A DNA stretch of 24,705 nt from the NCBI GenBank assembly GCA_043728625.1, contig JAYTMI010000429.1, positions 1 through 24,705 of the forward strand, given 5' to 3'. Positions 1,263-23,871 of the stretch are shown here, piece after piece (positions within the stretch are counted from its first letter, which is position 1; every line of letters begins with the position of its first letter). This DNA comes from Saprospiraceae bacterium (lineage in GTDB: Bacteria; Bacteroidota; Bacteroidia; Chitinophagales; Saprospiraceae). The position numbers and the translations under genes were made by a program. The notes under the pieces are model-generated. The model searched no databases. It had not been told where the DNA came from and saw only the letters and a list, made by a program, of their open reading frames with translations.

Positions 1263-1279
1263 AAACGCACCCCTCAGTA

Positions 1280-2299
1280 TCAACGCGTTAAGTTCATGAA
1301 AAGAGTCACATCATACGTCCATTCAGGGCGATATTGTTTCAAAAAGGTCTCGTGTCCAGCTTCGGGATATACGCTCATTGTCTTTTTAGTGCTTTGCAGA
1401 TTCGTGAAAATTTCACTTATTTCCGCTTCGCTGACCGTTTCATCTTTTCGACCGTACATCAAAAGAACTGGACACTGAACGGCTTTCGCATATTTTATCG
1501 GATTATGCCCGAATGCCCAAAAGCCATTCTGCACACCACCCCAAAAGACTAAAAGTCCTGCCATTGGGAAAGCAGGCACATTCATTCTATGAAATCTGGC
1601 TGCAGTCGTGGCATACATAGACCCAAAAGGATATTCTAAAATGATACCTTTTGGATGCATCTGAAAGTCGTGTTCGGCTTTCAGAATCGCCGCTGCACCC
1701 ATGGATGTTCCGAACAAATAAATAGCCGATTCGCCTTTTTGTTTCATAAAATCAAAACAGGACTTGACCTCTTCTGCTTCCTTAAACCCCACAGTCGTCT
1801 GAACGCCTTCGGAATCGCCCGCACCCATAAAGTCAACAATCAACGCATCATAACCCATTTGCAGAAAAACCTCTACTCTATTCAACATGGTTGATTTTTC
1901 ACCACTTAAACCATGAAAGAAAATGACCGTTCCTTTTTTGTCAGCCTCCTTTTGAAGTACACTTGCTGACCGAATCCACCACCCTTCAAGGCGTTTATTG
2001 CTCTGAATCGTCACTGTTTCATAAAGCCAAGGGGGAAATAATTTAGTGCGCGGCTTTGGATTGTCTATCCCCATAAACACCGTTTTTAGTATGCCACCTA
2101 TTGAAAGTTGCCTAACATCCTTTGTTTTTTCAATATTACTATCCGTAAAATGCGTAAATTTATAAGCATGAAAAAAGGCAATGATATTCATGAATATGAA
2201 TACCACTGCCAATGCTTTGAGAGCTTTTCGAATTTTTCTTTTGATTATAATTTTTTTTGTCATTGCCTCTTTCTTATCATGTTTTACTGAGGGGGTCAC
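1280..2299 (-). CDS. Alpha/beta hydrolase with N-terminal membrane anchor
   Basis: FHG oxyanion loop, GTSMG nucleophile elbow, Asp in GRKDE, His in AGHE. The GTG start overlaps the upstream stop (GTGA); an alternative ATG start is at 2263. Confidence 0.88.
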   Translation of the reverse strand: MTPSVKHDKKEAMTKKIIIKRKIRKALKALAVVFIFMNIIAFFHAYKFTHFTDSNIEKTKDVRQLSIGGILKTVFMGIDNPKPRTKLFPPWLYETVTIQSNKRLEGWWIRSASVLQKEADKKGTVIFFHGLSGEKSTMLNRVEVFLQMGYDALIVDFMGAGDSEGVQTTVGFKEAEEVKSCFDFMKQKGESAIYLFGTSMGAAAILKAEHDFQMHPKGIILEYPFGSMYATTAARFHRMNVPAFPMAGLLVFWGGVQNGFWAFGHNPIKYAKAVQCPVLLMYGRKDETVSEAEISEIFTNLQSTKKTMSVYPEAGHETFLKQYRPEWTYDVTLFMNLTR

Positions 2300-5200
2300 A
2301 ACTTCATAAAATCCTCCCCCAAAATCTTCTTTAAATAACGTATCAAATCCACGGCATTGTATTTATTAAAACACATCGGCGGTTTTATTTTTATCACATT
2401 GTTTTGAGGACCATCCACGCTGATGAGAATGCCATGCGTTTTCATACGATTTGCGAGATAAGCGGTTTTGTCTGTGGCGGGTATTTTATCTTTTTCGACC
2501 AATTCAAAACCTAAAAATAAACCTTCGCCACGTACATCACCGATGATGGGAAATTCTGTTTGCAATTTTCGTAGTTCAGATTTCAAAAACTCACCTATTT
2601 CAAAGGCATTTTCTTGCAAATGCTCTTCTTTTATCACTTTTAAGACAAATAAACCTATTGCAGAAGAAACAGGATTGCCCCCAAAAGTGTTGAAATATTC
2701 CATACCATTTGCAAAAGAAAGTGCAACAGCTTCTGTACAAGCGACCGCCGCCAAAGGATGCCCGTTGCCAATCGGCTTGCCCATCGTCACGATGTCGGGT
2801 ACAACGTCGTGGAGTTCAAAACCCCAAAACTTCTTCCCGACTCGACCAAAACCGACCTGCACTTCGTCAGCAATACATACGCCGCCTGCTTTACGAACAG
2901 ATGCGTAGGCGAGTTTCAAATAATTGTCGGGCAAGTCAATTTGTCCACCACAACTCACGATGCTTTCAGCAATAAAGGCAGATACACCGCGACCTTTTGC
3001 TTTGATATTTTCAATGGCTTCGTCCACATGAGCCGCATAACGTGCGCCTGTTTCGCTTTTATCACCTTGATAGAGACCTCTGAAACTATCGGGTAAGGGG
3101 ACAATATGTGTGTGTTCGGGCTTTCCCTTGCCGCCTTTACCATCAAATTTGTAAGAACTGATGTTGATACAGCCGTTTGTATTGCCATGATAACCGATTT
3201 CAAGGGCAATGATGTCCTTTTGACCTGTAATGGCTTGTGCCATACGCATCGCCAATTCGTTGGCTTCGCTGCCTGAGTTGACGAAATGCAATACAGACAA
3301 TTCTTTAGGCAATTTAGTTGCCAATTCCTTAGCAAAATCGAGAATATTGTCGTGCAAATAACGTGTATTGGTGTTCAAAACCGCCATTTGTTGCTGTCCC
3401 GCCTTTACGACTGAGGGGTGTTCATGCCCAACGTGCGCCACATTATTAACGGTGTCCAAATAACGCCTGCCTGTATCGTCAATCAAATATTGACGCTCGC
3501 CACGTTCTATTTTTAGCGGTTTTTCATAAGAAATGCTTAGACTTTTGCCCAAATGTTTTTTTCTGAAAGCCAATAATGTTTCATGTGACGCTTTTTCCAA
3601 AGGTTTAAGTTGTTCATTTTTAAAAAAAACATTAGGGTCAGGCGAAATAGACGACCACACGTTTATCGTATTCGGCGAAGCCACACCGTTGAAGTTGTTT
3701 TCATAGCCCATCAAATCCAAAATAATTTGAAAATGAAGGTGCGGTGTCCAATTGCCATTTTCGGAAGGGTTGCCCAATTCACCAATCTTTTTGCCTTTTT
3801 TAAACTTTTTACTGAGGGGGGCATTTTCTATACTGCGTTTGCTCAAATGACCATAAAGCGTATAAAAAACGCCTTTTTTATCGAATTTATGCTTCAAAAT
3901 AATGAGACCGCCATAATCTTTATCAGCAATATTATAGACTGAAGCGACGACTTCACCATCAAAAAGCGCATGAACAGGTGTTTTTTCTTGTTGCCAAAAA
4001 TCAATACCTAAGTGCATCGTTCTATATTCATATCCATTATTGCCCTCCTTTTCAAATGCTTTTGTGGCATACAACGGACGCGGTTCTAAATAGCCGCCAG
4101 CAAGTAGCGCGTTGGGGTATTCGGCTTCCAGTTGATTGATTTTATTTGTAAAAATAGTTGTATTTTTATATTCGGCATAATTGCCTAAAAACAAACTACT
4201 GATACTTAAATTCAATTTATAAACACTTGAAAATGAAATAGTTGGCAATAAATTATGTACGCTTAGTTGTTGTGTTGCCGCCCAATCTTCAAACGCTTTT
4301 TGATGCGGTACGGGCGTAAAACCACATGCAGAACGAAATGAAAAGTGTGCGTACTGAGGGGGTATATTTTTCCATTTAAACAACAAATCCCAAGCGGTTT
4401 TTTCGCTAATCAATAGATATTCATTGTCGGGTTCTTCAATTTTATTGATCGCTGATTTTGTTACGCTAATCGTCAAACGCATAGCGGTTAAGGTGTAAAG
4501 CATAGACAATTCACGCTCTTCTAAAGGAAATTTGCTGTGATAACCCGCCACCAAAGGTAAAGCAGCCGCCAAAGGATCGGGCTGTCCCATGATAGCATAC
4601 GCCAATGCGACCGCTAAATCGTTGATGGTTTGCGTATAAACCGCGTCGCCATAATCTATGACCGCCAATACTGAGGGGTCTATCAAATCATCAGTGACGA
4701 TGATATTATTGTCATTGGCATCGTTGTGGATGACGGACTTTCTTAACGTTTTATACTCTTTTTTAAAATCAACAAATTGGTTTAAATAAAAAGTCAAACA
4801 GGTTCTTTGTTTATAATTAAAAAGGTTTAAATGTTCAGAAACCCAAGACGCTTGTGCGATGTCCCATTGGAAAGGACGAGATGCGTGTGGGTGCGTAAAA
4901 TCGTTTAAAATCTGTGTTATTTCACCACATTTTTCACCCAAGCTATACCTCAAATCATCTAATTGAGGGTTGACTGTTGACATTAATCGTCCAGAAACCC
5001 ATTTTAACAAACGTATTTTTCGTGTTTTATCATAATTATCAAGCAAAACGATGTCATTTTCACCTGTTTTCGTTTTAACTATTTTAGGATATAAAAAATC
5101 AGGACTTTTGCTATTGATATGTAGTAACAGTTTTTGTTGAAAATCAAAATTCGTCTCTGACACATCGGGGCGGCTTATTTTTAAGATAAAATTGTCTCCA

Positions 5201-5343: not shown

Positions 5344-5363
5344 AAAAAATTTTATTAGATTAC

Positions 5364-5436
5364 ATGGTAAAACGAGTTAAAACCCGTTAAATTATAAATT
5401 ATCAGATACATCACGGGTTAAAACCCGTTTTACCAT
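5364..5436. repeat. REP-like palindrome doublet forming a 24-bp imperfect inverted repeat
   Basis: ACGAGTTAAAACCCGT (5372-5387) and ACGGGTTAAAACCCGT (5413-5428). Outer arms 5364-5387 and 5413-5436 are reverse complements with 3 mismatches. Confidence 0.7.
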
Positions 5437-5461
5437 AACCGCTAAGTAATTACATATAGAT

Positions 5462-5578: not shown

Positions 5579-5734
5579 ACTCTTTTCAATTAATATTTTG
5601 CCCTTTAACGGTGCAAATAAACTACAATTAGCTATTTTCATTGCGACTTTTGAAAAAAAATGGTAAAAAAACTGTATTTTGTATCCTTGTAACAGGATTC
5701 AAATTCATACTTTTACCAATTAAAATCAATAGTC

Positions 5735-6372: not shown

Positions 6373-8097
6373 ATGTTCAAAAAATTCAAATCGAACCGTT
6401 CTCAATCGCTCATTACGCTCCTTTTAGTAGCGATTATTCTCATCGTTGTCAACATCATTGCCAATAGTTTCAACAGCCATATTGACTTGACGGAAGAAGG
6501 TCGTTTTACGGTGACAGAACCGACAAAACGGCTTTTGAAGTCGGTCAAAGACCCTATTTTAGTCCGTATTTTGCTCGATGGTAAATTTCCCGCAGGATTC
6601 AAACGTCTTCAATCTTCGACGCGGGAAATGCTTGAAGATTTTCATAAAATCAACAGCACTGTCGAATACAAATTTGAAGACCCCTCAGTAATTGGCAATC
6701 CTGACGAAAAGAAAAAACGGTATGAGGAAATGGCTAAAGAAGGTCTTGTTCCTATGCGTTTGCGGGTTGTTGACGACAAGGAAAAGACCGAACAATACAT
6801 TTTCCCTTATGCAATTCTCAATTATCACGGCAATGATGTGGTGGTTAAACTCTTAGAAAATGATGTGCCGGGCATGAATCCAGAAATGTCATTGAACAAT
6901 TCTATTGCCCTTTTGGAGTATAAATTGTCCAATGCCATTCAAAAATTGATGGAAAATCATAAGCCTTTTATCCTTTTTACGGAGGGGCATGATGAATTGA
7001 AAAAAGAGGAAACGGCGGATTTAGAACAAACTTTGAATGCGTTTTACAGAACAGGACGCTTGAATTTGGATAGTATTACGATGATTCCATTCAAAGATTC
7101 CTTCAATCGAGTTGATGTTTTAGTGATTGCTAAACCCAAAACAGCGTTTTCAGAAAAGCAAAAATTTCAAATTGATCAATACATCATGGAAGGCGGTAAG
7201 GTTATTTGGCTTATTGACCGCTTAAACGCTGACTTGGTAGGTATGCAAAAAACAGGTGAAATGATACCTGTTGATTATCCATTAAATATTGAAGACCAAT
7301 TGTTTAAGTATGGTGCGCGCATCAATCCGAATATGGTTTTAGATATGCGCTGCGCTAAAATACCTTTGAAAGTCGGTGCCAGTGGCAATGCACCACAAAT
7401 GGATATGTTCGATTGGTACTACTACCCTCTGGCTTCGCCCAATGACAAACATCCAGTGACAAAAAGCCTCGATTTGGTTTGGTTGCAATTTCCTGCTTCG
7501 ATTGATACGATTCGGACAAAATCAGATATTTTAAAAACATCGCTTTTGGTTTCTTCAAAAGCCAGTCGGACGCAATTTGCACCGACAAAACTGAATTTTG
7601 AAATTCTGCGATACCGTGCGGAACCCGACAAATTCAATAAAGGTTTTCAACCGATGGCAGTTATGCTCGAAGGCACATTTACAAGCCTTTACGAAAATCG
7701 AGTTACGACAGAACAAACTGCTGTTTTGCAACAATTGGGTTTAGAATATGCCCCCCTCAGTAAAAATACCAAAATGCTGGTCGTCGCAGACGGTGATATT
7801 GCAAAGAATGAATACGATTTCAAGCAAAACGCCATGCTGCCCTTAGGCTACAATCGTTATGTGAATTATAAATTTGCGAATAAAGATTTTTTGCAAAATA
7901 GCATCGAATATATGCTCGACGACAAAGGCATCATCGCCGCCAGAAGTAAAGAAGTCAAACTCCGTTTGATGGATAAGGAAATGGCTGATGAGAATGCGAC
8001 GGGCATTAGATTGGTCAATATTCTTATACCATTGCTTTTGATTGGTCTATTTGGCATGCTGTTTATGTGGCGCAGGAAGAAACGTTATGCGGTTTAG
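6373..8097 (+). CDS. gldG: Gliding motility-associated ABC transporter auxiliary protein GldG
   Basis: N-terminal TM then IDLTEEGRFT; LEYKLSNAI; FTEGHDEL; IDQYIMEGGKVIWLID; C-terminal IEYMLDDKGIIAARSKEVKLRLMD plus TM and WRRKKRY. Confidence 0.93.
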   Translation: MFKKFKSNRSQSLITLLLVAIILIVVNIIANSFNSHIDLTEEGRFTVTEPTKRLLKSVKDPILVRILLDGKFPAGFKRLQSSTREMLEDFHKINSTVEYKFEDPSVIGNPDEKKKRYEEMAKEGLVPMRLRVVDDKEKTEQYIFPYAILNYHGNDVVVKLLENDVPGMNPEMSLNNSIALLEYKLSNAIQKLMENHKPFILFTEGHDELKKEETADLEQTLNAFYRTGRLNLDSITMIPFKDSFNRVDVLVIAKPKTAFSEKQKFQIDQYIMEGGKVIWLIDRLNADLVGMQKTGEMIPVDYPLNIEDQLFKYGARINPNMVLDMRCAKIPLKVGASGNAPQMDMFDWYYYPLASPNDKHPVTKSLDLVWLQFPASIDTIRTKSDILKTSLLVSSKASRTQFAPTKLNFEILRYRAEPDKFNKGFQPMAVMLEGTFTSLYENRVTTEQTAVLQQLGLEYAPLSKNTKMLVVADGDIAKNEYDFKQNAMLPLGYNRYVNYKFANKDFLQNSIEYMLDDKGIIAARSKEVKLRLMDKEMADENATGIRLVNILIPLLLIGLFGMLFMWRRKKRYAV

Positions 8098-9168: not shown

Positions 9169-12057
9169 TTAATTCAATCTCTGAATCAACAAAATAAATG
9201 ACAACAAGGCAGTCGCTTGTGCAATAGAGTCTGCTAATACTTTTCCCCAATCCACTTCTTTTTTATCACTTTTGATAGCCTCTTTTTTCTTTTCAGCATA
9301 TCCCACAGAAATTATACTCCCTTTTTGAACTTTAGGGTAAATTTTAAAGAGCAAGAAATCCTTTGTTCTTTTGATTTGACCATTTGGATGTTCAACAGAA
9401 ATCAAACGCTTGCGTCCTTCTTTACCGATGCCTGCTGCATAATTGTCCACATAATACCACGCTGATTTATTACCCTCATAAGCTACGTTGATTTTGCCTG
9501 CTGCGAGAATTTTATCGGGATACAAATCAACCATTTGCGTCGCACCACGAATTGTTACAATATCTTTGTTTTTAGGAACATCAATGTTATCCCCCTCTTT
9601 TAAGATGATATTATGATATGAAGTTTGGTTTTTTATGGCATCCTCCAGCTTGACTATGACGTAACCAATATTATCTTGATTCCGATATAAAGTTGCACCC
9701 GAAGGAAAAGCTTCTGGTGATAAACCACCTGCTCGTTGAATAACATTCATCAAACGTTCGTTTTTATCAATCAAAGCATACTGCCCGGGGTATTTGACTT
9801 CGCCTGTGATACTCACCATTTTTTGAAAACCAAATTCAGGAATACTTCTAATAACAATTTGGTCATAAGGTTGTAGTGGAAAATTAACCGCCGCTTGATT
9901 ATCGAAATCGAGGTTCTTGTCAACCTCTACGGTTGCAACAACTGTTCTAACTTCTTCATTGCCATTGAGTTGTACACGCGAAACGTCCACCCGATTGGCT
10001 GCTGCATCAAGTTTTAAACCACCTGAAAGCGTTAAAACATCGCGTAAAGTGAGGGTTTCGTCCCATTTGTACTCACCTGGAATACGTACAGCACCTGAAA
10101 TACGCACATAGGCTTCATCAACATAAGTCACTCGTGACTGTATCCGTAGTTCGTCATTGGCTTGTAAAAAGATATTTTCATCAGAATTGACGCTTTCTAA
10201 TGCTTTTTTTAGTTCTATACGCTTGTATTCAACCAGTTTTACATTATTAGGGTCTCGCCGAACGATATAAGCAAAGTCCGTTGCCTCTGGTTTTAAACCA
10301 CCTGCCAAGTTGACGATGTCGCTGATACGTATCGTTTTTGATGGGTCAAAAGGAAAACGCAAAGGTGTTTTGACTGCTCCAGTGACAAAAACGGAGTCTT
10401 TGGTCATAAACTTTTCAGTCGTATATATGAGTAAACGGTCTTTGGGTTGCAGTTTTAAATTGGTTGGGGCATTCGGGTTTTTCAATATGTCGTCAATATT
10501 GAGGATCTTCAATTGCAATGTTTGGTCAGAGTTTATGCGTTGCAAATAAGCGATGTCTGTACGAGCTTCTTTTCTTAATACCGCTTTTGTCAATACATCT
10601 TTGACAGTCATTCCTTCCGAAATTTCATATTTACCAGGCAAATCAACGGCACCAACCACGTTCGCAAAATTTTCAAAAATAGTCGGAATCGCTTTAACTA
10701 CCACTGAATCACCGTTTAATAGCTCAAAATCACCACCTCTTCCTTTGAGGTCTTTGTAGTTGACATCAATAAGTTTCTCGCGGTCATTGACAAAACGGCG
10801 GACTTGCAAAGTCGTTTGGTAAGCATTTTCTGCTAATCCACCCGCATAAGTTAAGGCTTTCATTAAGTGCTCGCCACCGATTAATTCATATTTCATTGGA
10901 CGGCGTACAGCACCTGCGATAGTCACGATTCGTTCGGCAACAGGGACGCTGATATAATCATTGTCAAACAGTGAAAAATCGCGCGCTACTGAGGGGTCTA
11001 TCAGAAACTCATAGACATCAAGGCGTTTCTTCTCATTTGACCCTGCTCGAATGAGCTTGATATTACGCACACTACCAATATCGGTTGGACCACCTGCTGC
11101 GATGAGGGCGTTAAAAGCCGAGTTGCCCGCTGAAATCGTAAAGCTCCCTGGACTGAACACTTCTCCGACAATATTAACGACTACAATACGCGTCGCATTG
11201 ACCGAAACCAAGAAGTCACTCGGCGCAAATGGATAAAAACGTTGGAAACTCGCTTGCAAATTGCGTCTGGCAACGCTCAAAGGCAAACCTTTTAGAAAAA
11301 CACGCGGCATTCTGTCGGGCTGAATATACCCCTCAGTATTTATCGTAAAAGTTTGGTTGAAATAAGCCACACCAGAGATACTTATGGTCACTTTATCGCC
11401 ACTCGACAAAACATAAGAATCGGGCGCTTTAAAGTCTTTATCTTTAATAAAACCTAATTTTCCATCTTGAAAAACTTGATGACCATACACCGACATCGGT
11501 TCAATACTATCTTTCTTAGTAATTTTTGAAGGGACTTTCAAACCAAAAGCCTCTTCAATAGTAATACCTTTCGCCCTTCTGACACTGTCTCTTATCGCTT
11601 CTTTTGCCAATTCAATGGCTTTTTTTCGGGAAATTTTAGGGTCATAAATATCATCTTCTTCAACTTTTCTCTTTTGTTCAAACAGCTTCGTCCGTTTAGC
11701 AGGAATCGAATCATCATCAATATCTAATACTTTCCTTTCATTTTTTGTCACCTTGTCTGACTCATCCAGTCTATCATTTTTTTCTGTTTCTGTATCTAAC
11801 TTTTGCTGTTTCTCTTTCTCTAATTCAGCCACAATCTCTTCGATTTGTTTCTGAACACGTGGTAGGTCTTGCGGACGAATATTGTCAATATCAATACCCT
11901 TTTCTTCAAGACGTTGACGCACTTCTTCTTCGCTCAATCCACGTTTTCTTAGTTCTGAATTAATAATGGAGGTATCCACACTGGTAGGTACTTGCTGCGC
12001 AAAAGTCGTTTTGGTCAAAAAGAAAGCACAAAACAGAAGGAAAATATATTTTTTCAT
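9169..12057 (-). CDS. SLBB-domain polysaccharide export protein (Wza/KpsD-like)
   Basis: Signal peptide; APDSYVLSSGDKVTI poly_export motif; repeated SLBB units (VNIVGEVFSPG, IAGAVRRP, VVGAVDLPG, ISGAVRIPG, ITGEVKYPG). Confidence 0.9.
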   Translation of the reverse strand: MKKYIFLLFCAFFLTKTTFAQQVPTSVDTSIINSELRKRGLSEEEVRQRLEEKGIDIDNIRPQDLPRVQKQIEEIVAELEKEKQQKLDTETEKNDRLDESDKVTKNERKVLDIDDDSIPAKRTKLFEQKRKVEEDDIYDPKISRKKAIELAKEAIRDSVRRAKGITIEEAFGLKVPSKITKKDSIEPMSVYGHQVFQDGKLGFIKDKDFKAPDSYVLSSGDKVTISISGVAYFNQTFTINTEGYIQPDRMPRVFLKGLPLSVARRNLQASFQRFYPFAPSDFLVSVNATRIVVVNIVGEVFSPGSFTISAGNSAFNALIAAGGPTDIGSVRNIKLIRAGSNEKKRLDVYEFLIDPSVARDFSLFDNDYISVPVAERIVTIAGAVRRPMKYELIGGEHLMKALTYAGGLAENAYQTTLQVRRFVNDREKLIDVNYKDLKGRGGDFELLNGDSVVVKAIPTIFENFANVVGAVDLPGKYEISEGMTVKDVLTKAVLRKEARTDIAYLQRINSDQTLQLKILNIDDILKNPNAPTNLKLQPKDRLLIYTTEKFMTKDSVFVTGAVKTPLRFPFDPSKTIRISDIVNLAGGLKPEATDFAYIVRRDPNNVKLVEYKRIELKKALESVNSDENIFLQANDELRIQSRVTYVDEAYVRISGAVRIPGEYKWDETLTLRDVLTLSGGLKLDAAANRVDVSRVQLNGNEEVRTVVATVEVDKNLDFDNQAAVNFPLQPYDQIVIRSIPEFGFQKMVSITGEVKYPGQYALIDKNERLMNVIQRAGGLSPEAFPSGATLYRNQDNIGYVIVKLEDAIKNQTSYHNIILKEGDNIDVPKNKDIVTIRGATQMVDLYPDKILAAGKINVAYEGNKSAWYYVDNYAAGIGKEGRKRLISVEHPNGQIKRTKDFLLFKIYPKVQKGSIISVGYAEKKKEAIKSDKKEVDWGKVLADSIAQATALLSFILLIQRLN

Positions 12058-12178: not shown

Positions 12179-13249
12179 TTAAGCATACTGTTTGTCATAA
12201 TACTGCTGATAATTGCCCGAAGTCACATTATCAACCCATTCTTTATTGTTCAAATACCAATCAATCGTTTCGCGGAAGCCTTCCTCAAATTTTACTGAGG
12301 GTGTCCAGCCGAGTTCATTCAATAGTTTCGAAGCATCAATCGCATAACGGCGGTCATGTCCTGGGCGGTCTTTCACAAATGTAATCAGTTCCCTTGCCAT
12401 GCCTTGTGGACGACCCAATTTCTCATCCATGATGTCGCACAACTTATGCACGAGGTCAATGTTTTTCCATTCATTATTGCCACCGATATTGTAGGACTCT
12501 CCTACCCGACCGTTGTGAAAAATCGTATCAATCGCCGTTGCATGGTCTTTGACCCATAACCAATCACGGGTGTATTTGCCATCGCCATAAATTGGCAAAG
12601 GTTTGCCTGTCAAAATATTATTGATGATGAGTGGAATCAATTTTTCAGGAAAATGATTCGGTCCATAGTTATTCGAGCAATTCGACAATACTATCGGCAA
12701 ATCGTAGGTATGGTAATAAGCATTCACCAAATGGTCGCTACTTGCTTTTGATGCTGAATACGGTGAACGCGGGTCATAAGGCGTTGTTTCTGTAAAAAAG
12801 CCTTCATCGCCCAACGAGCCAAATACTTCATCGGTTGAAACATGATGAAATCGCTTTGCATTGCCCCCCTCAGTACCCAAGACGTTTTTCCATATTTGGC
12901 GCGCGGCATTCAACAAATTAACCGTTCCAACAATATTCGTTTTGATAAACGACATAGGATCAGAAATCGAACGGTCAACATGACTTTCAGCCGCCAAGTG
13001 AATAACACCATCAAATTGATATTGCTCAAAAATGTCATTGATGAACGCTTCGTCCGTAATATCGCCTTTTTCGAAGGTGTAATTCGGCGAATCTTCGACA
13101 TCGCGTAGGTTTTCGAGATTGCCTGCATACGTCAAAGCATCGAGATTAACGATGCGATATTGCGGATATTTATTGACAAACAAACGAATGACGTGCGAGC
13201 CAATAAACCCTGCACCACCTGTTATGAGAATTGTTCTTTCAAATTTCAT
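12179..13249 (-). CDS. rfbB: dTDP-glucose 4,6-dehydratase
   Basis: TGGAGFIGS, HLAAESHVDRSI, HVSTDEVFG, YSASKA, SNCSNNYGP, RDWLWVKDH, DRPGHDRRYAID. Confidence 0.97.
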   Translation of the reverse strand: MKFERTILITGGAGFIGSHVIRLFVNKYPQYRIVNLDALTYAGNLENLRDVEDSPNYTFEKGDITDEAFINDIFEQYQFDGVIHLAAESHVDRSISDPMSFIKTNIVGTVNLLNAARQIWKNVLGTEGGNAKRFHHVSTDEVFGSLGDEGFFTETTPYDPRSPYSASKASSDHLVNAYYHTYDLPIVLSNCSNNYGPNHFPEKLIPLIINNILTGKPLPIYGDGKYTRDWLWVKDHATAIDTIFHNGRVGESYNIGGNNEWKNIDLVHKLCDIMDEKLGRPQGMARELITFVKDRPGHDRRYAIDASKLLNELGWTPSVKFEEGFRETIDWYLNNKEWVDNVTSGNYQQYYDKQYA

Positions 13250-13861: not shown

Positions 13862-13916
13862 TTAAACATAGTCAAAGCAAAAACAGAATCAGTACCCCTC
13901 AGTAATTCAAGAAAAA

Positions 13917-16271
13917 TCAGTCAATAATCAGTTCATCTGCAAAAAGCCAAGCCGCTTTACCTTCTCCTGCATGACCTTTTGGGCAAACGCCTATGTTTTT
14001 AGCATAAATTTTTAAATACCGTTTGGGTTTGGTGTATTCCGAAAAGCGCAATTTTGCTTGCTTAATATACGTTTTTTCAAGGCTTCGGCTGTGTACGAAG
14101 TCTGCACGGTCAATGTCTAACCATTCTTTGCCGTCATTTGAAACAGATGCTATAACGTAATCGGGTAGAAAAATCCAAGAGGCAGGTTTGTTCAAAAACT
14201 CTAAATCAATAGACCTAAACTTTCGTGGTTCTTCGAAATCGAATATAACTTCCATATCATTGCCTTCAAAGCCTGTCCATTGTGAGTAAGTTTTTTCGCT
14301 GCCGCGAATGCCGTTTGTTAAACCACGTGTACCTGATTCGTAGGTGTTTTTAGCAGGTTTGGTCAAATTGTATTTCATACCCAAAGCGGCATGTGGATAA
14401 ACCGTTTGGGTAACCGTTTTACTAATAGGTCTTCCATTCTGAAAACTAGTCGCTCTAATGGCATTAAAATCTTTAATACCAAACGGTTGCGTATATAAAA
14501 ATGATTTAATGGTAGGTTGAGAACCATCCGTAGTATAACGAATTTCTGTGTTTTTGACAGAAGAACTCAAATATACTGAGGGGGTCGAATTTTCGGATTT
14601 GAAGGCGATGTCCACGTCATAAAGCCGCTTGGCATAGTTGACATCCATGCGGTCGAGCCGGTTAAAATGAGTCTGCAAACGGGATACAAAATCGTCATAA
14701 TTCTGCCGATTTTTTGGAGACCACAGCACCTCGGCTAAAGCAATGGCGCGCGGAAAAACCATATATTCTACTTGCTCAGTCGTTCCCATATACTCTGTCC
14801 ATACATTGCCTTGTGCGCCTAAAATATGTTTGGCTTGTTGTGTATTGAGCACTTCAGGCGTTGGTTCAAAAGAATAAGTGTTTTCCAAAGTTACCAAGCC
14901 GCCAATAGCTAAAGGCTCGGTTTCGGGGTCTGCTTGATAATAATCTAAATAACAATAACTACCCGGTGTCATAATAACATCATGGTCTTGTTGCGCTGCC
15001 GAAATGCCCCCCTCAGTACCACGCCACGACATAACTGTTGCATTGGGTGCCAAGCCGCCTTCAAGGATTTCGTCCCACCCAATGATGCTGCGTCCTTTGG
15101 CGTTTAGGAATTTTTCAATACGTTGTATGAAATACGATTGTAGCTCATGCTCATCTTTAAGACCTTCTTTTTTCATCAGGTCTTGGCAGAATGGGCTTTT
15201 TTTCCATGCTTCTTTTGGACATTCATCACCACCGATGTGAATATATTTTGAAGGAAATAAATCCATCACCTCGGTCAAAACATCCTGTAAAAACGAAAAT
15301 GTTTTGTCAGAGGGGCAAAAAACATCTTCGAAAACACCCCAACTGGTTGCCACTTCATACTTTTTTGTAGAGTCGCAAGAAAACTCTGGATAGGCGGCTA
15401 ATGCGGCGAGTGCATGACCTGGCATTTCAATTTCAGGGATAATATTGACAAAACGTTCCTTGGCATAGGCTACAATATCACGTATCTGGTCTTGAGTATA
15501 AAAACCGCCATAAAGCTGCCCGTCAAATTTTTGGGGGCGGTCAGAACCATGCCCTATAAGGGTTTCCTTTCGCCACGCCCCTATTTCAGTCAATCTAGGG
15601 TATTTTTTTATTTCGATACGCCAGCCTTGGTCTTCTGTTAAATGCCAATGAAAATTATTCATTTTGTGCAATGCCATGAGGTCAATGTATTTTTTGACAA
15701 AACTAACAGGCTGAAAATGCCGCCCCGCATCGAGATGCAAACCTCTGTATGCATAGCGGGGTTTATCCTCAATTTCAACACAAGGCGCGCGCCAAGTCAC
15801 TTTTGTCCTTAAAGTTGATGTTGAAAACACCTCCGTTGGCAATAATTGCAACAATGTCTGCACGGCATAAAAAAATCCTTGTTCTGTTGCAGCTTTGATA
15901 TTGATTTGTGTAGGCATTACACTCAATTTATACCCCTCAGTACCTAAGCCTTCTTTGTCTGTTTTCAAGAAAAAAATGACGTTAGTATTTGATTTTGACT
16001 CATTTAAATCAATGACAGATACATTAGTACCATCTTTTTTGATACGGTTCGCAAACTGTTGTGCAATACGCCGAATACCTGCAATAGCATTAGGTACGAT
16101 GATTTGTGTTCGATTCGTAATCGTAAAAGAGCCTGTCACAGGTGTCAACTTTGTCGGTTGTGGCACGATGCTGATGAGAGTAATTTCGTTTTTTGTATTG
16201 CTAAGGCTTTGTGCCGTCATCTTTATTATACCAATATACAGAAATACACATAGTAGTAATTGAATTTTCAT
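13917..16271 (-). CDS. GH20 beta-N-acetylhexosaminidase with C-terminal accessory domains
   Basis: Signal peptide; YRGLHLDAGRHF, FHWHLTEDQGWRIEI, IPEIEMPGH, catalytic HIGGDE, IGWDEI; C-terminal IRYTTDGSQP domain. Confidence 0.95.
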   Translation of the reverse strand: MKIQLLLCVFLYIGIIKMTAQSLSNTKNEITLISIVPQPTKLTPVTGSFTITNRTQIIVPNAIAGIRRIAQQFANRIKKDGTNVSVIDLNESKSNTNVIFFLKTDKEGLGTEGYKLSVMPTQINIKAATEQGFFYAVQTLLQLLPTEVFSTSTLRTKVTWRAPCVEIEDKPRYAYRGLHLDAGRHFQPVSFVKKYIDLMALHKMNNFHWHLTEDQGWRIEIKKYPRLTEIGAWRKETLIGHGSDRPQKFDGQLYGGFYTQDQIRDIVAYAKERFVNIIPEIEMPGHALAALAAYPEFSCDSTKKYEVATSWGVFEDVFCPSDKTFSFLQDVLTEVMDLFPSKYIHIGGDECPKEAWKKSPFCQDLMKKEGLKDEHELQSYFIQRIEKFLNAKGRSIIGWDEILEGGLAPNATVMSWRGTEGGISAAQQDHDVIMTPGSYCYLDYYQADPETEPLAIGGLVTLENTYSFEPTPEVLNTQQAKHILGAQGNVWTEYMGTTEQVEYMVFPRAIALAEVLWSPKNRQNYDDFVSRLQTHFNRLDRMDVNYAKRLYDVDIAFKSENSTPSVYLSSSVKNTEIRYTTDGSQPTIKSFLYTQPFGIKDFNAIRATSFQNGRPISKTVTQTVYPHAALGMKYNLTKPAKNTYESGTRGLTNGIRGSEKTYSQWTGFEGNDMEVIFDFEEPRKFRSIDLEFLNKPASWIFLPDYVIASVSNDGKEWLDIDRADFVHSRSLEKTYIKQAKLRFSEYTKPKRYLKIYAKNIGVCPKGHAGEGKAAWLFADELIID

Positions 16272-17243: not shown

Positions 17244-17328
17244 CAACAATCATCAATCATATTTTACACCCCATCAGTAATTTTCTAAATAAATCCATTT
17301 CTTAAAATTGCAAAAAAAGTATTTACAA

Positions 17329-19197: not shown

Positions 19198-19363
19198 ATT
19201 TTTTATAATCATACCCTTCAGTAATTTTCCTTGTCTGACACCTACTCTATTTGGGTTATTTCATAAAAATAAGTTCAAACCCTTATAAAAATGCCATCAA
19301 GTGCTTCAAAATTTATTTTAATTTCATGAAAATGTAAAATCTAAAAATTTTTATGCACAAAAA

Positions 19364-19395: not shown

Positions 19396-19458
19396 CATTA
19401 AATATTTTTAGAATATTAGGAGTTCAAACAAAATTTTTCTAACCAAAATTCACCGCCA

Positions 19459-19707
19459 ATGAATATTACATTTGAAGAGTTGCGCAGGCTGAAGCATAGT
19501 CTTCCAACAGGCAGCGTCAGCCGCATTGCACAGGAACTTAACAAAGACGAACATGATGTTCGCAATTTTTTCGGGGCTACAAAATTTAAAGGAAGCACCG
19601 CTGATTGGCATTATGAATCAGGACCCGATGGAGGTATCATCAATGTTCACGATTCAACTATTATTGATGCAGCTAAACGCATTTTACAAGAATCGCACAG
19701 TAGTTAA
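19459..19707 (+). CDS. Small conserved Bacteroidota putative DNA-binding (HTH-like) protein
   Basis: ITFEELRRLKHSLPTGSVSRIAQEL...VRNFFG...GPDGGI matches a family I recall as annotated 'DNA-binding protein' across Bacteroidota. Confidence 0.75.
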   Translation: MNITFEELRRLKHSLPTGSVSRIAQELNKDEHDVRNFFGATKFKGSTADWHYESGPDGGIINVHDSTIIDAAKRILQESHSS

Positions 19708-19731
19708 TCAGTTTAAATTTGTTGCGATACA

Positions 19732-19779
19732 AACAAAGAAACGGGAATCTATCATTTGATAGATTCCCGTTTCTTTGTT
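19732..19779. terminator. Bidirectional terminator between convergent genes
   Basis: AACAAAGAAACGGGAATCTATCA / TGATAGATTCCCGTTTCTTTGTT, 23-bp perfect inverted repeat. Confidence 0.85.
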
Positions 19780-19793
19780 CTATAAACACCCAA

Positions 19794-21569
19794 TCACTCA
19801 TTTATTTCAAACTCAACACGACGATTAAGTTGTCGTGCTTCTTCTGTATCATTATCCGCAGAAGGTCTTGTATGCCCAAATCCCTTGTAGCTCATTTGTT
19901 TTGAAGGCACACCTTTCTTTTGCAAATACAAATAACACATTTTGGCTCTACTAACAGATAATATTTGATTGTTTGCTGCCTTACCTGTTATGTCCGTATG
20001 CCCCATTATGAGAAGCTCGTACTTAGGATTGTCCAACAAAATATAAGCAATTTCATTTAAAATAACATAACTTTCTGGTTTGTAGATGGCTTTACTGGTT
20101 TCAAAATAAATAGGTGATATCGTATAATGGTTGCGTACAATATTGAAAGTGTTTTCCTGTGTATCCACAACCATTGCATTTTCAAGATAATTTTTGATTG
20201 GTTTTTGTGGTTTCTGAACTGAATTAGGTTTCTCTTGCGTCAAAACCGTTGCTTCTGATTCTGGTTTTGTCATTTCTGTAGGCTTTTTTAGTGGTTTTTC
20301 TGAAATATACTGAGGGGGGGTATTTTCTATAAAAACTGGTTTTTCAAGTTTGTTACTCAAAGTCAAACTATCCTTTTTTCCTGATGTTTGGCTGACATCA
20401 ACAGGTTTTAAAGGAGTCGTATTCGGTACAACAATAACCTTAACCGTATCTAAAGACGTTATTGGCTTGTTTTTACTCGAATCCATAGCAGAACTTATCA
20501 ACTTTTCTTCAGTCGGACACCCTCTATATCGTCCACTGCCTACTTCGTTAGGGCAAATATCGTATTTGTCGATTATGCCATCTCCATCTGTATCAGGGCA
20601 ACCTTCATATAAAGTTAAACCAGCTGTATTAGGGCAAGCATCTTTATCATCAGTAATGCCATCGCTATCTCTATCGGGGCAACCCTGTAATTTGGCATCG
20701 CCTTTTAAGAAAGGACAAAGGTCGTATTTGTCTGGAATCCCATCTTTATCAGAATCTTTGATATAGCCCAAAGTCTTTGAAAGCCCTACACTGCCGACAA
20801 AATACCAATCATTGACGTTCGGGTTCCCTGCAACGCTGATGCCATCAATTTCATCTGAAAAAGCAGGGCGAAAACCGCCTTCAATTGTCAGGTTTGACTG
20901 TTGATTGACTAAAGGAATTCGCAAGCCACCGCCAAAAGGAATGATAGCATGTGCTTTAGCATGTAAGGCTGACTTGTCGGCATTTATTCGGAACCCTGCT
21001 GTCGTTGGATTAGGCAAAAGTTTATCATTAAAGTTGGTTTTAGGACTTACAATCGCTAAACCACCGCCCACATAAATAAAAGGTGATATGCGACGTGCCC
21101 GCATTCTAAAATTTTGTTGACTCACCTCGTCCAAAACAGATACACCAGACGATAGAGAAGAAATTTTCCTTGCAATCCCTAAAAAATGATATTCACCCCT
21201 CACAGCTAATTCTGTCAAAGGCGATTTAAACTGAAAATTTCGAGCCACACGCCAAGGTGTTTCAGTAGAATGGCTATCACTACCGCCCAAAACACCTTGT
21301 GCCAAACTGATATTCATACCAAAATAATTGCCAAATGAACGCCGAACAAACAACCCTCCTATAAGTTTACTTTCTGAAAAAGCAAATTCAAGGTCTCCAG
21401 AATAAGCTGTTAGACCCAACAACAAACCTCCTTCCCACTTTTGCGTGTGCGTAATTGTATGTGCAGCGCTTGTACCATCTTTCTCTTTTTTGTCCTGAGA
21501 TTCTTGTGCTGAAATATAAGAAGAAAACAATACGAGGAAAAGTATCAAATATTTAGATTCGGTTATCAT
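19794..21569 (-). CDS. OmpA-family protein: N-terminal beta-barrel, thrombospondin type 3-like repeats, Pro/Lys-rich linker, C-terminal OmpA peptidoglycan-binding domain
   Basis: DSDKDGIPDKYDLCP, DRDSDGITDDKDACP and DTDGDGIIDKYDICP repeats; IYFETSK...GHTD...LSVSRA...GFGHTRP...NRRVEF. Confidence 0.92.
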   Translation of the reverse strand: MITESKYLILFLVLFSSYISAQESQDKKEKDGTSAAHTITHTQKWEGGLLLGLTAYSGDLEFAFSESKLIGGLFVRRSFGNYFGMNISLAQGVLGGSDSHSTETPWRVARNFQFKSPLTELAVRGEYHFLGIARKISSLSSGVSVLDEVSQQNFRMRARRISPFIYVGGGLAIVSPKTNFNDKLLPNPTTAGFRINADKSALHAKAHAIIPFGGGLRIPLVNQQSNLTIEGGFRPAFSDEIDGISVAGNPNVNDWYFVGSVGLSKTLGYIKDSDKDGIPDKYDLCPFLKGDAKLQGCPDRDSDGITDDKDACPNTAGLTLYEGCPDTDGDGIIDKYDICPNEVGSGRYRGCPTEEKLISSAMDSSKNKPITSLDTVKVIVVPNTTPLKPVDVSQTSGKKDSLTLSNKLEKPVFIENTPPQYISEKPLKKPTEMTKPESEATVLTQEKPNSVQKPQKPIKNYLENAMVVDTQENTFNIVRNHYTISPIYFETSKAIYKPESYVILNEIAYILLDNPKYELLIMGHTDITGKAANNQILSVSRAKMCYLYLQKKGVPSKQMSYKGFGHTRPSADNDTEEARQLNRRVEFEINE

Positions 21570-21865: not shown

Positions 21866-23779
21866 ATGAAAAAACAGTCTTTAAAATTCTGTTTGCTGGC
21901 TTTCACTTTCTTCATCTTTGGAAACTGCAAAACACCACAACAGACAACGAATACAAATACGACGACGTTTTCTACTCCTAAACAGTATCAACGTTGGCAA
22001 CAACGTGCTGAATACACGATGGATGTGGATTTTGACGACTATAAACATCAATATTCAGGCAAACAAACGCTGGTTTATCACAATAATTCGACCGATGAGT
22101 TGTCAAAAGCCTTCTATCACCTCTATATGAATGCTTTTCAGCCTGGTAGTGCTATGGATATTCGCAGCCGTACCATTGCCGACCCCGACCCGCGTGTTTC
22201 TGACCGCATTTCTAAATTGAAACCAGACGACATGGGTTATCTCAAAATCAAGTCGTTGACGATGAACGGCAAAAAATGTTCTTTCACAACCGAAGGAACA
22301 ATCCTTGAAGTCAATTTGCCTGAAAAAATAGCCCCCCTCAGTACCGTTACGTTTGATATGGAATTTGACGGACAAGTTCCGCTTCAAATTCGTCGCAACG
22401 GACGCATGAATAGCGAAGGTGTTGACTACTCAATGGCTCAATGGTATCCAAAAATGTGTGAATACGATGAGCAAGGTTGGCACGCCAACCCTTACGTTGG
22501 ACGCGAATTTTATGGCATTTGGGGCGATTTTGATGTTACTCTTCATATCAATCAAAAATTTATGATTGGCGGAACGGGCATCTTGCAAAATGTTGCTGAC
22601 ATTGGCAAAGGTTACGGTACTGGCACACCTATACCCGATGCAAAAGGCAAATTGGCTTGGCATTTTGTCGCCAAAAACGTGCATGATTTTATGTGGGCAG
22701 CTGACCCTGATTACAAGCATGTAAAGAAAGTCGCTGACGATGGCACTATGATGCACTTTTTCTATATTCCTTCTGACAAAACAGCCGCTTGGGAAGAACT
22801 CCCAGACATCATGGCAAAGGTTTTTGCTTTCAACAGAGACCATTTTGGCAAATATCCTTGGTCTGATTATGCTTTTGTACAGGGTGGCGATGGTGGCATG
22901 GAATACCCGATGGCAACTCTGATAACAGGAGAACGTCCTTTGTCCTCATTGGTTGGCGTATCAGTTCATGAGTTGTTTCACTCTTGGTATCAAGGTGCAT
23001 TGGCAACAAATGAAAGCCTTTATGCGTGGATGGACGAAGGTTTTACGTCTTATGCTTCAAATTATACCATGAATTATTTAAGAAAATTAAAACTGTTAAA
23101 AGGTGAAGTTGAAGATGAACCCATGCTCGGCGACGTTGCCAGTTTTTGCAAATGGCAATTGCGCGGACGTGAAGAACCCCTCAGTATTCATGCTGATCAC
23201 TGTATTTCCAATACAGCTTATAGCATTGGCGCATACACCAAAGGGGCTGTTTTTTTAGAAGAAATAAAATACATCATTGGAGAAGAAAATTTTCAAAAAG
23301 GGATTTTACAATATTTCAATGAGTGGAAAATGCGGCATCCAAATCCAAACGATTGCATTCGTGTTTTTGAAAAAATAAGTGACTTAGAACTCGATTGGTT
23401 TAAAGAGTACTTCGTTTACACGACAAAACAAATTGATTACGCTATTAATAATGTGAGTGATTCAGGTTCTAAAACCAAAGTAACTATCAAAAGAGAAGGC
23501 TTGATGATTATGCCTCTTGACATCATGGTGATTTATACGGATGGGTCAAAGGAGCAGTTTTATATTCCGCTTGACTTGATGCGTGGGGAAAAGCCTAATG
23601 AGTTTCCAAAACTAAAACGCACCACCCTACCCGATTGGACTTGGACTTATCCAAGATATGATTTTGAGATTCAATCTGCAAAAAACAAAATTGCAAAGAT
23701 TATTATTGACGACAGCCACCGTTTAGCTGATGTGAATAGAGATAATAATGTTTGGGATAAGGATAAAAATAAGGAATGA
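21866..23779 (+). CDS. M1 family Zn metallo-aminopeptidase, probable lipoprotein
   Basis: GGMEYP, HELFHSWY and WMDEGF (HExxH...E), YTKGAVFL; signal peptide ending FGN-C. Confidence 0.93.
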   Translation: MKKQSLKFCLLAFTFFIFGNCKTPQQTTNTNTTTFSTPKQYQRWQQRAEYTMDVDFDDYKHQYSGKQTLVYHNNSTDELSKAFYHLYMNAFQPGSAMDIRSRTIADPDPRVSDRISKLKPDDMGYLKIKSLTMNGKKCSFTTEGTILEVNLPEKIAPLSTVTFDMEFDGQVPLQIRRNGRMNSEGVDYSMAQWYPKMCEYDEQGWHANPYVGREFYGIWGDFDVTLHINQKFMIGGTGILQNVADIGKGYGTGTPIPDAKGKLAWHFVAKNVHDFMWAADPDYKHVKKVADDGTMMHFFYIPSDKTAAWEELPDIMAKVFAFNRDHFGKYPWSDYAFVQGGDGGMEYPMATLITGERPLSSLVGVSVHELFHSWYQGALATNESLYAWMDEGFTSYASNYTMNYLRKLKLLKGEVEDEPMLGDVASFCKWQLRGREEPLSIHADHCISNTAYSIGAYTKGAVFLEEIKYIIGEENFQKGILQYFNEWKMRHPNPNDCIRVFEKISDLELDWFKEYFVYTTKQIDYAINNVSDSGSKTKVTIKREGLMIMPLDIMVIYTDGSKEQFYIPLDLMRGEKPNEFPKLKRTTLPDWTWTYPRYDFEIQSAKNKIAKIIIDDSHRLADVNRDNNVWDKDKNKE

Positions 23780-23871
23780 TGAAATATGAATGAAAAAAGC
23801 GACCCCCTCAGTAAATCGAGAGAAGTCGCTTTTTTCATTCATCATTCATATTTTTCATCATTCATCATTCC
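23773..23871. terminator. Bidirectional terminator with heptad (ATGAATG/CATTCAT) arms and the 10-mer in its loop
   Basis: 18-bp perfect stem ATGAATGAAAAAAGCGAC (23786-23803) / GTCGCTTTTTTCATTCAT (23825-23842). The loop starts with CCCCTCAGTA (23804-23813). Confidence 0.85.

Follow-up and report, generated by a model that had tools for sequence, protein, structure and literature searches.

The window examined here, by which we mean the whole stretch of 24.7 kb, carries 18 exact copies of the 10-mer CCCCTCAGTA, 11 on the forward and 7 on the reverse strand, a count given by the initial annotation and reproduced at the same positions when the copies were recounted. The word is non-palindromic (reverse complement TACTGAGGGG) and, as had been described, is scattered across both genes and intergenic gaps: 15 copies lie in open reading frames (ORFs), where between them they occupy all three phases (0, 1, and 2) and either orientation, and 3 lie in spacers, each at the 3′ end of a gene. 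The first copy (1270..1279, +) occupies the 17-bp spacer between convergent genes and is followed by one in an a/b-hydrolase ORF (2285..2294, −; coding strand, phase 2) and by three in an APH+M23+aminotransferase ORF (3810..3819, −, coding strand, phase 0; 4352..4361, −, phase 1; and 4669..4678, −, phase 2). Two copies fall in a GldG-like ORF, of which the one at 6681..6690 (+) is identical in 8 of 9 related MAG loci, two of these at 69% nucleotide identity, with L001 one base off, and the one at 7753..7762 (+) is identical in all 9 orthologous loci. The Wza-like exporter ORF holds a copy on its coding strand (10987..10996, −) and another on its template strand (11329..11338, +), and the GDP-mannose dehydratase ORF a single template-strand copy (12866..12875, +). 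Around the GH20 gene, one copy lies in the spacer 3′ of the gene (13895..13904, +) and three inside it, on the coding strand at 14574..14583 (−) and on the template strand at 15009..15018 (+) and 15933..15942 (+). The remaining copies are on the coding strands of a 591-aa ORF (20308..20317, −) and a 637-aa ORF (22334..22343, + and 23177..23186, +), and in a spacer between convergent genes (23804..23813, +).

One-mismatch copies were few in the window, as previously noted, with five counted in place of the earlier estimate of about four. These are CCCCTCAGTC (3409..3418, −); CCCCTCCGTA (6978..6987, −), whose orthologous site has the exact word in L001, L002, and L003; ACCCTCAGTA (12293..12302, −), which is exact in L007; and CCCATCAGTA (17270..17279, +) and CCCTTCAGTA (19214..19223, +), both within a 4.4-kb motif-free, low-GC stretch of the window. 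All 18 exact copies are directly preceded by A or C, confirming the initial annotation on this point, and the extended motif takes the form M-CCCCTCAGTA-T with approximately five helically phased A+T tracts per side.

No copies were expected in the window under 100 dinucleotide shuffles (mean of 0.00), and the abundance extends far past this contig. In the 4.88-Mb metagenome-assembled genome (MAG), CCCCTCAGTA is the top-ranked 10-mer, with 3,978 exact copies (0.82/kb) split 2,068 / 1,910 between the strands, approximately 1,100 times the 3.6 copies expected under an order-3 Markov model. A codon-aware null that preserves the encoded proteins and the codon usage of the genome likewise failed to explain the counts, predicting 14.4 copies within ORFs where 3,241 were observed (225-fold). 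The enrichment of several hundred-fold that had been estimated by hand, from a GC content of 38% close to the measured 39.1%, was conservative. Perfect copies dominate, as all 30 one-mismatch variants sum to 692 in the MAG versus the 3,978 exact copies. Since this density and sharpness are on a par with those of known uptake sequences, they lend themselves to a reading akin to the DUS of Neisseriaceae and the USS of Pasteurellaceae.

The word is also present in independently generated sequence. Logan contigs assembled independently from four metagenome runs of sediment carry sites 6681 and 7753 with zero differences, and the word recurs in independently assembled MAGs of other studies, one long-read assembly among them. 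Habitats of the motif-bearing MAGs include sediments of glacier-fed streams and saline lakes. Confinement to one contig, absence from independent assemblies or raw data, and explanation by codon usage, which the initial annotation had listed as outcomes that would count against it at the level of sequence, were each checked, and the word persisted throughout. High copy number alone could suggest that a very small mobile element of the MITE or REP type had left the copies behind, or that they arose as artefacts of assembly or adapters; we regard these explanations as refuted, given that the word appears in many independent assemblies and raw-run contigs, sits in frame within conserved genes, has variable flanks, and is gained and lost through substitutions only. 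The hallmarks of REP and MITE elements, namely conserved flanks or palindromes, a mostly intergenic location, and gain by insertion, are absent.

Genome-wide, CCCCTCAGTA occurs in every open phase and is balanced in orientation relative to transcription (1,471 / 1,455), with 26% of copies outside ORFs. Within genes it imposes rare codons, such that 10-12% of all AGG, GGG, and CCC codons sit in the word. Its presence in all phases, in both orientations, in spacers, and at the cost of rare codons establishes that the word acts at the level of DNA. Among spacers, density is highest between convergent genes (1.78/kb), followed by tandem (1.51) and divergent (1.10) arrangements, gene 3′ ends thus being favoured, and about 30 close inverted pairs were found among the 3,978 copies, a few of which form terminator-like hairpins. 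The G-rich form lies on the G-rich strand in 54-57% of cases, the level that base skew alone predicts, and orientation is mixed along the stretches inspected in G013 (100 kb) and G041 (400 kb); no meaningful replication polarity of the Chi or KOPS type was detected from strand skew or in these two regions. Approximately 50 same-strand copies that had seemed to stand in G013:C6 were a match-listing artefact, the fetched sequence showing mixed orientation. Chi and the KOPS/AIMS motifs are 5-8 nt long, few-fold enriched, and strongly skewed toward the leading strand. The word resembles them in being an over-represented oligomer of the kind that DNA-processing machines read, and differs from them in its near-even strand distribution. 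By the reasoning of the initial annotation, in which a lack of polarity would favour a DUS-like element, the absence of both leading-strand bias and clustering points in that direction.

The spacing of the copies is more even than random. Gaps of ≤100 bp make up 1.6% of the total versus 9.3% under random placement on the same contigs, the coefficient of variation of the gaps is 0.72 versus 0.94 (0.72 again in G041), and word-free gaps reach at most 6.4 kb across the 4.9 Mb of the MAG and 6.2 kb across the 400 kb inspected in G041.

A survey of related genomes found the word throughout a clade of uncultured freshwater Saprospiraceae, made up of 21 of the 33 species of one GTDB genus; the remaining 12 congeners, like 149 further genera of the family, show background counts. 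Its presence maps onto the ComEC tree with one change, a pattern consistent with a single origin within the genus. Individual sites are strongly conserved: 77 of 84 sites in G000 (92%) recur unchanged in G013 or G018 amid flanks of 72% identity, as compared with an expected 10%, and alignments of orthologous loci show sites being gained and lost by point substitutions with no indels. In motif-free congeners, by comparison, the positions of the word are 46% identical versus 62% for the flanks. Decayed copies were not found in motif-free genomes, in which one-mismatch counts are at the control level, nor were dialect words found in 70-120 kb each of the motif-free G019, G007, and G003, which contained only local tandem arrays. 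Two genomes that could have passed for intermediates, G015 (39 copies) and G042, were rejected as such because their copies lie in clustered patches; as the G015 contig C73 also holds a second comEC, of the motif-bearing type, the copies in these genomes are attributed to bin contamination or import. Within the genus, 21 species accordingly have the word and 12 lack it, with no intermediates other than bin contamination. A division of this kind within one genus is unusually tractable for comparative studies, and a presence/absence comparison should point to the determinant.

Although the flanks of CCCCTCAGTA have no conserved sequence, their composition is structured, and this is a new result of the present analysis. 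A+T content oscillates around the word with a period of 10.5 bp, phase-locked over approximately 50 bp, or about five turns, on either side; across the core the phase is offset by half a turn. The oscillation has an amplitude of 0.048 3′ of the word and of 0.025 5′ of it, versus 0.002 in controls, and the phasing was reproduced in G041. A coding periodicity arising from amphipathic helices was rejected as the source, since phase and amplitude do not differ between spacers and any of the five coding classes. Helical A+T phasing with such an offset is what DNA curved around a protein classically displays, and its extent over some 100 bp gives a strong structural hint as to the handling of this DNA.

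The word is also carried by temperate phages of the clade. Five IMG/VR records contain 0.33-0.94 copies/kb, a density like that of the host, among them G198 with portal, tape-measure, integrase, and terminase genes; one 37-kb phage contains 28 copies, and phage copies are found even inside terminase and tape-measure genes. A bias in transfer other than uptake could be imagined on this basis, in which the word would serve as a pac-like signal at which a transducing phage or gene transfer agent starts packaging, or as a nick site for mobilising the chromosome, and marked segments would be exported preferentially and then recombined into relatives. Such a process would follow the same population-genetic logic as a drive through uptake, and the phased flanks would suit wrapping by a terminase, as small terminases wrap bent pac DNA. 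We nevertheless judge it quite improbable: known pac and oriT sites number one or a few in each genome and usually come with inverted repeats, which are absent here, and it would be unusual to find a pac site 28 times in a single 37-kb phage.

Phage carriage and a sharp consensus would equally be explained if the word were a by-product of a methyltransferase acting together with a mismatch endonuclease of the very-short-patch type, which would convert near-cognate sequences to the word in any DNA that replicates in these hosts. A biased-repair origin of this sort has been suggested for the cyanobacterial HIP1, the CTCAG within the core, which the initial annotation had likened to restriction-modification target sites, is similar to Type IIS/IIG recognition sequences, and an Eco57I/MmeI-type enzyme does exist in G000. 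The gene for this sole enzyme, however, sits in a motif-free island with a GC content of 0.34 and is therefore probably a recent acquisition, and Vsr does not track the motif, being found in 1/21 motif-bearing and 3/12 motif-free genomes, which rules out Vsr-driven repair. C-to-T variants are the most frequent one-mismatch decay products of the word and are not depleted, and neither the even spacing nor the 10.5-bp phasing would be accounted for. We consider this origin very improbable, and the proposed link to methylation and restriction-modification was not upheld. The likeness to HIP1 (GCGATCGC) itself extends to hyperabundance, retention at orthologous positions, and restriction to a lineage; HIP1 is an 8-bp palindrome, whereas the present word is asymmetric, longer, and furnished with phased flanks.

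The search for competence genes that the initial annotation had recommended recovered comEC, comF, a ComEA-like gene with four HhH repeats (4xHhH), and dprA. A cluster of the order comF-comEC-4xHhH ComEA-like-mltA-TonB-like OMP was found with its genes intact, and DprA is present in 31 of 33 genomes of the genus. None of the components checked across the genus (ComEC, the 4xHhH protein, DprA, and the cluster OMP) tracks the motif: the first three are equally present in motif-free congeners, and the orthologue of the cluster OMP, although specific to motif-bearing genomes, is patchy among them (14/21, versus 0/12 in motif-free genomes) and was rejected as a motif-tracking gene. Machinery of the type IV pilus was searched for by way of two components, the secretin and the PilB/T-type ATPase; the Secretin family had no match in 33/33 genus genomes, and no T2SSE/PilB/T-type ATPase scored above the cut-off in G000. 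Receptors of uptake sequences, whether characterised (ComP) or predicted (ComN), are type IV minor pilins. Given these two negative results, neither a ComP-like minor pilin nor the pilin-type receptor predicted for the USS can apply to this genus. A precedent for a different route is offered by Riemerella, which transforms without pili by means of ComEC, ComF, DprA, an HhH protein, and a CarboxypepD_reg OMP (PMC8459023), and of which R. columbina favours its own DNA (PMC7965970). The same gene classes are present here and partly clustered, a likeness that holds at the level of gene class; no uptake word has been reported from Riemerella.

The lack of a motif-specific competence component, together with the phased flanks and their half-turn offset, the even spacing with its bounded gaps, the very strong conservation of sites, and the copies in phages, terminase and tape-measure genes included, could also be read as the trace of an intracellular site of binding or nucleation, at which a clade-specific protein would wrap about 100 bp, either in an architectural or nucleoid role or as a mark of 'self'. 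In the latter version, marked DNA would be spared by a host nuclease or translocase, in the manner of Chi for RecBCD though without polarity. Copies would then be kept by selection at each site in place of a bias in transfer, and a phage that copied the mark would benefit. This alternative is possible but on balance doubtful. The word is limited to a clade with healthy, motif-free sister species, which speaks against a core role in the chromosome; histone-fold proteins are absent and no candidate for the wrapping protein was identified; and each of the features listed is found in USS and DUS systems as well. We also know of no nucleoid or self-marking site that unites a sharp 10-12-mer, a density near 1/kb, and an enrichment of 1,000-fold. 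Only tentatively, then, would we propose a previously unknown, genome-wide intracellular system of 'self' recognition in which a clade-specific protein recognises the 12-mer and wraps some 100 bp of phased DNA at 4,000-7,000 evenly spaced sites.

The reading that we favour, with a probability of roughly 0.5, is that M-CCCCTCAGTA-T is a DNA-uptake-enhancing sequence of the DUS/USS kind that serves a pilus-independent competence machine of Bacteroidota in 21 or more species of Saprospiraceae. Competent cells would bind and import fragments bearing the word better than other DNA, and recombination of the imported fragments would spread and restore copies across the chromosome by molecular drive, possibly aided by selection, which would lead to a density of about 1/kb, irrespective of strand, in all places that tolerate the sequence. 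As the genus has no secretin, import would follow the pilus-independent route of Bacteroidota, with a TonB-dependent-receptor-like outer-membrane barrel, a periplasmic ComEA-like protein with four HhH repeats, MltA, ComEC, ComF, and DprA as its putative parts, and the phased flanks may ease the bending or wrapping of DNA at the entry step. The uptake bias, its receptor, and the drive are what we infer here, beside the observed signature, site conservation, clade limits, phage carriage, and competence genes.

Judged by comparative sequence features, the word shares most genomic hallmarks of the DUS and USS. USS density is about 0.8/kb. Like the word, the Pasteurellaceae USS is non-palindromic, similarly dense, and evenly spaced, occurs on both strands and in genes and spacers, has more perfect than one-off copies, is conserved at orthologous positions, is defined by a core together with helically phased T-tracts (PMC3458573), and is carried by temperate phages (PMC6776037). 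It differs in belonging to another phylum, in its unrelated sequence, and in being phased for two turns on one side as opposed to about five turns on both, and the present word additionally has sister species that lack it entirely. The Neisseriaceae DUS (GCCGTCTGAA and AT-DUS, with ComP as receptor) is likewise a clade-specific, strand-independent 10-12-mer at approximately 1/kb, with spacer copies at gene 3′ ends and hairpin-forming inverted pairs, although such close pairs are scarce here and the sampled motif-free congeners yielded no dialects. The initial proposal, which had drawn the analogy to these systems in its self-recognition part, is partly supported, the analogy being extended by the even spacing, phased flanks, site conservation, temperate phages, and intact competence genes; of the intracellular and methylation alternatives that it named alongside, the latter gained no support. 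Against an uptake function stand the lack of a motif-tracking gene, of a secretin, and of dialects in three sampled congeners, as well as a phasing that exceeds the extent known from the USS and that a DNA-wrapping intracellular protein would fit equally well; phage carriage, too, is compatible with an intracellular benefit.

To our knowledge, sequence-specific uptake of DNA is documented in only two proteobacterial families, those of Neisseria and of the relatives of Haemophilus. The initial annotation knew of no such motif in Bacteroidota, and a literature search for an uptake-like word in Bacteroidota or Saprospiraceae found no report, while one for CCCCTCAGTA returned only matches to mammalian primers. 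If the uptake reading is true, self-preference in transformation would have evolved independently in Bacteroidota on a machine of the TonB-receptor/ComEA type, and a concrete uptake sequence would be available to test. Whatever its function, CCCCTCAGTA is a clean marker by which contigs, prophages, and phages can be assigned to the clade, and it exposes mis-binned contigs such as those in G015 and G042.

The asymmetric 10-mer CCCCTCAGTA occurs in 18 exact copies in the 24.7-kb window, 11 on the plus strand and seven on the minus strand, which reproduces the number, strands, and every position reported in the initial annotation, as well as its observation that the base 5′ of the word is A or C at 18 of 18 sites. 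Five one-mismatch sites were found, and dinucleotide-shuffled windows contained no copies of the word. Of the 18 sites, 15 fall within ORFs whose functions are unrelated, in either orientation and covering three phases; the other three lie in short spacers at the 3′ ends of genes. Relatives identified through one window protein are Saprospiraceae MAGs of stream, lake, and sediment metagenomes. The source MAG (4.88 Mb in 1,092 contigs, 39.1% GC, 78% complete) carries 3,978 copies (2,068 and 1,910 by strand; 0.82 per kb) vs 3.6 expected under an order-3 Markov model, so the enrichment first noticed in the contig holds genome-wide; the word is the commonest 10-mer, the top three 8-mers are fragments of it, and all 75 contigs longer than 10 kb contain it at 0.48-1.38 copies per kb. 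The sole long motif-free stretch of the window (15943-20307; 4.4 kb, GC 0.359) contains two one-mismatch copies and two ORFs without a Pfam match (16401-17243 and 17308-19128), and may be more recently acquired DNA. A 1,015-aa ORF at 2296-5343 (minus strand) has an unusual architecture of APH-type phosphotransferase, M23 peptidase, and class-III aminotransferase domains.

The signal operates at the DNA level. In the information profile of the copies, the word is preceded by M at −1 (C 0.63, A 0.33) and followed by T at +10 (0.67), with no sequence conservation in the flanks past these positions, which shows that they are not pieces of a longer repeat. Perfect copies outnumber the 30 one-mismatch variants, which sum to 692, by 5.7 to 1, the commonest deviations being those at outer positions and C-to-T changes. 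With genes approximated by long ORFs, 74% of the copies lie within ORFs, which make up 84.5% of bases; there the C-rich form is found 1,471 times on the coding strand and 1,455 times on the template strand, and all reading phases are occupied but the one giving TAC-TGA. The word is built on disfavoured codons, holding 11.7% of the genome's AGG, 10.3% of its GGG, and 11.1% of its CCC, and a codon-aware null in which the actual proteins were kept and synonymous codons were sampled by genome usage predicts 14.4 ORF copies vs 3,241 observed; codon usage, raised in the initial annotation as a possible source of the counts, thus falls far short of them. In spacers, density is lowest where genes diverge (1.10 per kb), intermediate in tandem arrangements (1.51), and highest in convergent ones (1.78), so the word is least favoured in promoter regions. 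Close inverted pairs are a small minority (approximately 30), some of them flanking terminator-like hairpins.

No polarity was found past base skew: the G-rich strand carries the G-rich form at 54-57% of sites, a bias for which the word's net excess of four C over G accounts by skew alone, and both orientations are intermixed over 100 kb of G013 and within each 20-kb bin of 400 kb of G041, two motif-bearing MAGs of the same GTDB genus. Copies are spaced more evenly than chance, with gaps of 100 bp or less making up 1.6% vs 9.3% under random placement of the same site numbers on the same contigs, a gap CV of 0.72 vs 0.94, and a widest gap of 6.4 kb; G041 repeats this pattern (CV 0.72, widest gap 6.2 kb). 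The widest motif-free stretches carry SusC/D and TonB-receptor genes, a Type III res-family (ResIII) helicase, adhesins, and BamA, and one of them, a 5-kb island of GC 0.34, encodes a 972-aa Eco57I/MmeI-type (Type IIG-like) restriction-modification enzyme (locus L086, 1346-4261, on contig C504 of the source MAG). Anecdotally, these contents partly fit a lower density in recently acquired DNA.

At nine orthologous loci the window sites are mostly identical, even in two loci at only 69% nucleotide identity, and the differences are substitutions, never insertions. Over 96 kb aligned to G013 or G018 (also motif-bearing), 77 of 84 source-MAG sites are letter-perfect vs 10% expected from the flanks, which are 72% identical. 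In 57 kb aligned to motif-free congeners, which covers 25 sites, identity is 46% over the ten positions of the word and 62% over the flanks; each site was therefore created through multiple substitutions along the lineage that bears the motif, and the sites have been maintained there since. An assembly artefact was excluded, since sites 6681 and 7753 recur unchanged in independent Logan contigs from four metagenome runs and assemblies from several studies also contain the word. Some Logan contigs of one run match the window only over the 16 bases at 7751-7766 and diverge on both sides, indicating that the extended word is long enough to form short shared assembly-graph nodes.

The word is also carried by phages. 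A scan of IMG/VR with its commonest 14-mer extension returned mostly single, chance matches, together with several records at host-like density over their full length (28 copies in 36.8 kb, 35 in 76.2 kb, 25 in 26.5 kb, 17 in 22.8 kb, and 14 in 42.0 kb). The 36.8-kb record (G198) encodes a portal, tape-measure, integrase, primase, virion proteins, a ParB-methyltransferase, and the large terminase, with copies within the terminase, tape-measure, and integrase genes, and genes for a head protease and an integrase are present in the 42-kb record; by gene content both are temperate phages, and the host of G198 is probably within the motif-bearing Saprospiraceae clade. G198 (L212-L213) is a near-complete tailed phage in which the ParB-like-DNA methyltransferase fusion adjoins the large terminase gene. 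In Pasteurellaceae, the host's uptake sequence (USS) likewise builds up in temperate phages, reaching host-like frequencies, but not in large, probably lytic phages (PMC6776037).

A periodic A+T signal surrounds the word: its best period is 10.5 bp, it extends at least 50 bp in either direction, and its amplitude is 0.048 to the 3′ and 0.025 to the 5′ of the word vs 0.002 at random genome positions. Peaks fall near −37, −27, −17, and −6.5 and near +10, +20.5, +31, +41.5, and +52, the two series being displaced by approximately half a turn across the core. This helical phasing is a new result. Because spacers and each of the five coding classes show equal phase and amplitude, amphipathic helices or any other protein-coding origin can be excluded. 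The identical phase, with the same base preferences at −1 and +10, is found in G041, which shares only 51% ComEC identity with G013. A 12-mer set in approximately 100 bp of anisotropically bendable DNA therefore appears to form the functional unit. The phasing is on both sides and more extended than in USS, which, together with carriage by phages, could point to a DNA-wrapping reader inside the cell; histone-fold proteins were not found, and we consider this reading possible though rather unlikely. We favour, at roughly even odds, the word being an uptake signal, by analogy with USS and the Neisseriaceae uptake sequence (DUS), which it resembles in density and sharpness, independence of strand and reading frame, even spacing, A+T tracts phased beside it, sites conserved in orthologues and turned over by point mutation, clade limits, presence in temperate phages, and preference for spacers at gene 3′ ends. 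To our knowledge, the ten-feature combination is not found in any other class of element. We found no publications on this word or on any uptake-like word in Bacteroidota, and a 2025 preprint still regards uptake sequences as confined to Neisseriaceae and Pasteurellaceae.

The initial annotation proposed a search for competence genes, and ComEC, DprA, and a ComEA-like protein were found; none of the genes tracks the word so far, which sets this system apart from USS and DUS. The source MAG has ComEC and DprA; neither a secretin nor a PilB/T-type ATPase above cut-off was found in it, and a secretin is absent from all 33 genus genomes searched, 22 of them of high quality; a genus without pilus and secretin is a further difference from USS and DUS. 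G013 carries a single-strand cluster (L047, 3774-11790, contig C7) of comF, comEC, a 402-aa protein with four ComEA-type HhH repeats, an MltA-like transglycosylase, and an 848-aa outer membrane protein (OMP) with a TonB-dependent-receptor-like barrel and CarboxypepD_reg and Plug domains; its gene order is kept on contigs C490 and C314 of the source MAG (L054, L091). The conserved cluster is a candidate pilus-independent DNA uptake operon. The gene set resembles the genetically defined pilus-independent machinery of Riemerella anatipestifer, which comprises ComEC, ComF, DprA, RecA, an HhH protein, and a CarboxypepD_reg outer-membrane protein (PMC8459023), and R. columbina imports self DNA preferentially over foreign DNA (PMC7965970). 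ComEC, the four-HhH protein, and DprA are universal in the genus, and no gene among ComEC, ComF, four-HhH, MltA, OMP, and DprA separates motif-bearing from motif-free species. Of the 21 motif-bearing genomes, 14 have an OMP orthologue (at least 72% identity), vs none of the 12 motif-free ones; G022, which is motif-bearing and 99% complete, lacks it. The OMP is a lead and not a determinant.

Among 33 species genomes of the GTDB genus, 21 are motif-bearing, with about 2,800-6,950 copies each (eight later-added genomes were counted by the 12-mer), and 12 are at background; 149 other genera of the family, at one genome each, have 0-14 copies, similar to a reversed-word control, and 16 other families of the order have 0-3, so the survey extends the enrichment across a clade and no further. 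On the ComEC tree, of which the backbone is poorly resolved and the rooting midpoint only, a single change explains the trait. That other transfer biases drive the word seems improbable, and a drive by repair or methylation slightly more so, the very-short-patch-type mismatch endonuclease Vsr occurring in 1 of 21 motif-bearing vs 3 of 12 motif-free genomes. In G015 (39 copies) and G042, both counted as motif-free, copies are gathered in few patches or short contigs at approximately 1 per kb (C73, C268, C282, and others in G015), where the word marks DNA that comes, by mis-binning or import, from co-occurring motif-bearing species; C73 of G015, a 2.2-kb contig, holds a second comEC of motif-bearing type, which indicates mis-binning. 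One-mismatch copies in motif-free congeners are at background, without excess, and no alternative dispersed word was seen in 70-120 kb samples; dialects, another point of difference from USS and DUS, were thus not found in the sampled sister species. These congeners contain local tandem arrays with units of approximately 14 bp (TTCGGCAAATCGCG-like), 26 bp (GTCGGCGAGGTTGCAAC-containing), and 11 bp (ATAAGCCGTAC), located in L036 at ~3185-5310 (G007, contig C1), in L025 at ~6447-6613 (G019, C1), and in L043-L044 (G003, C1, at ~54.7 kb and ~70.1 kb).
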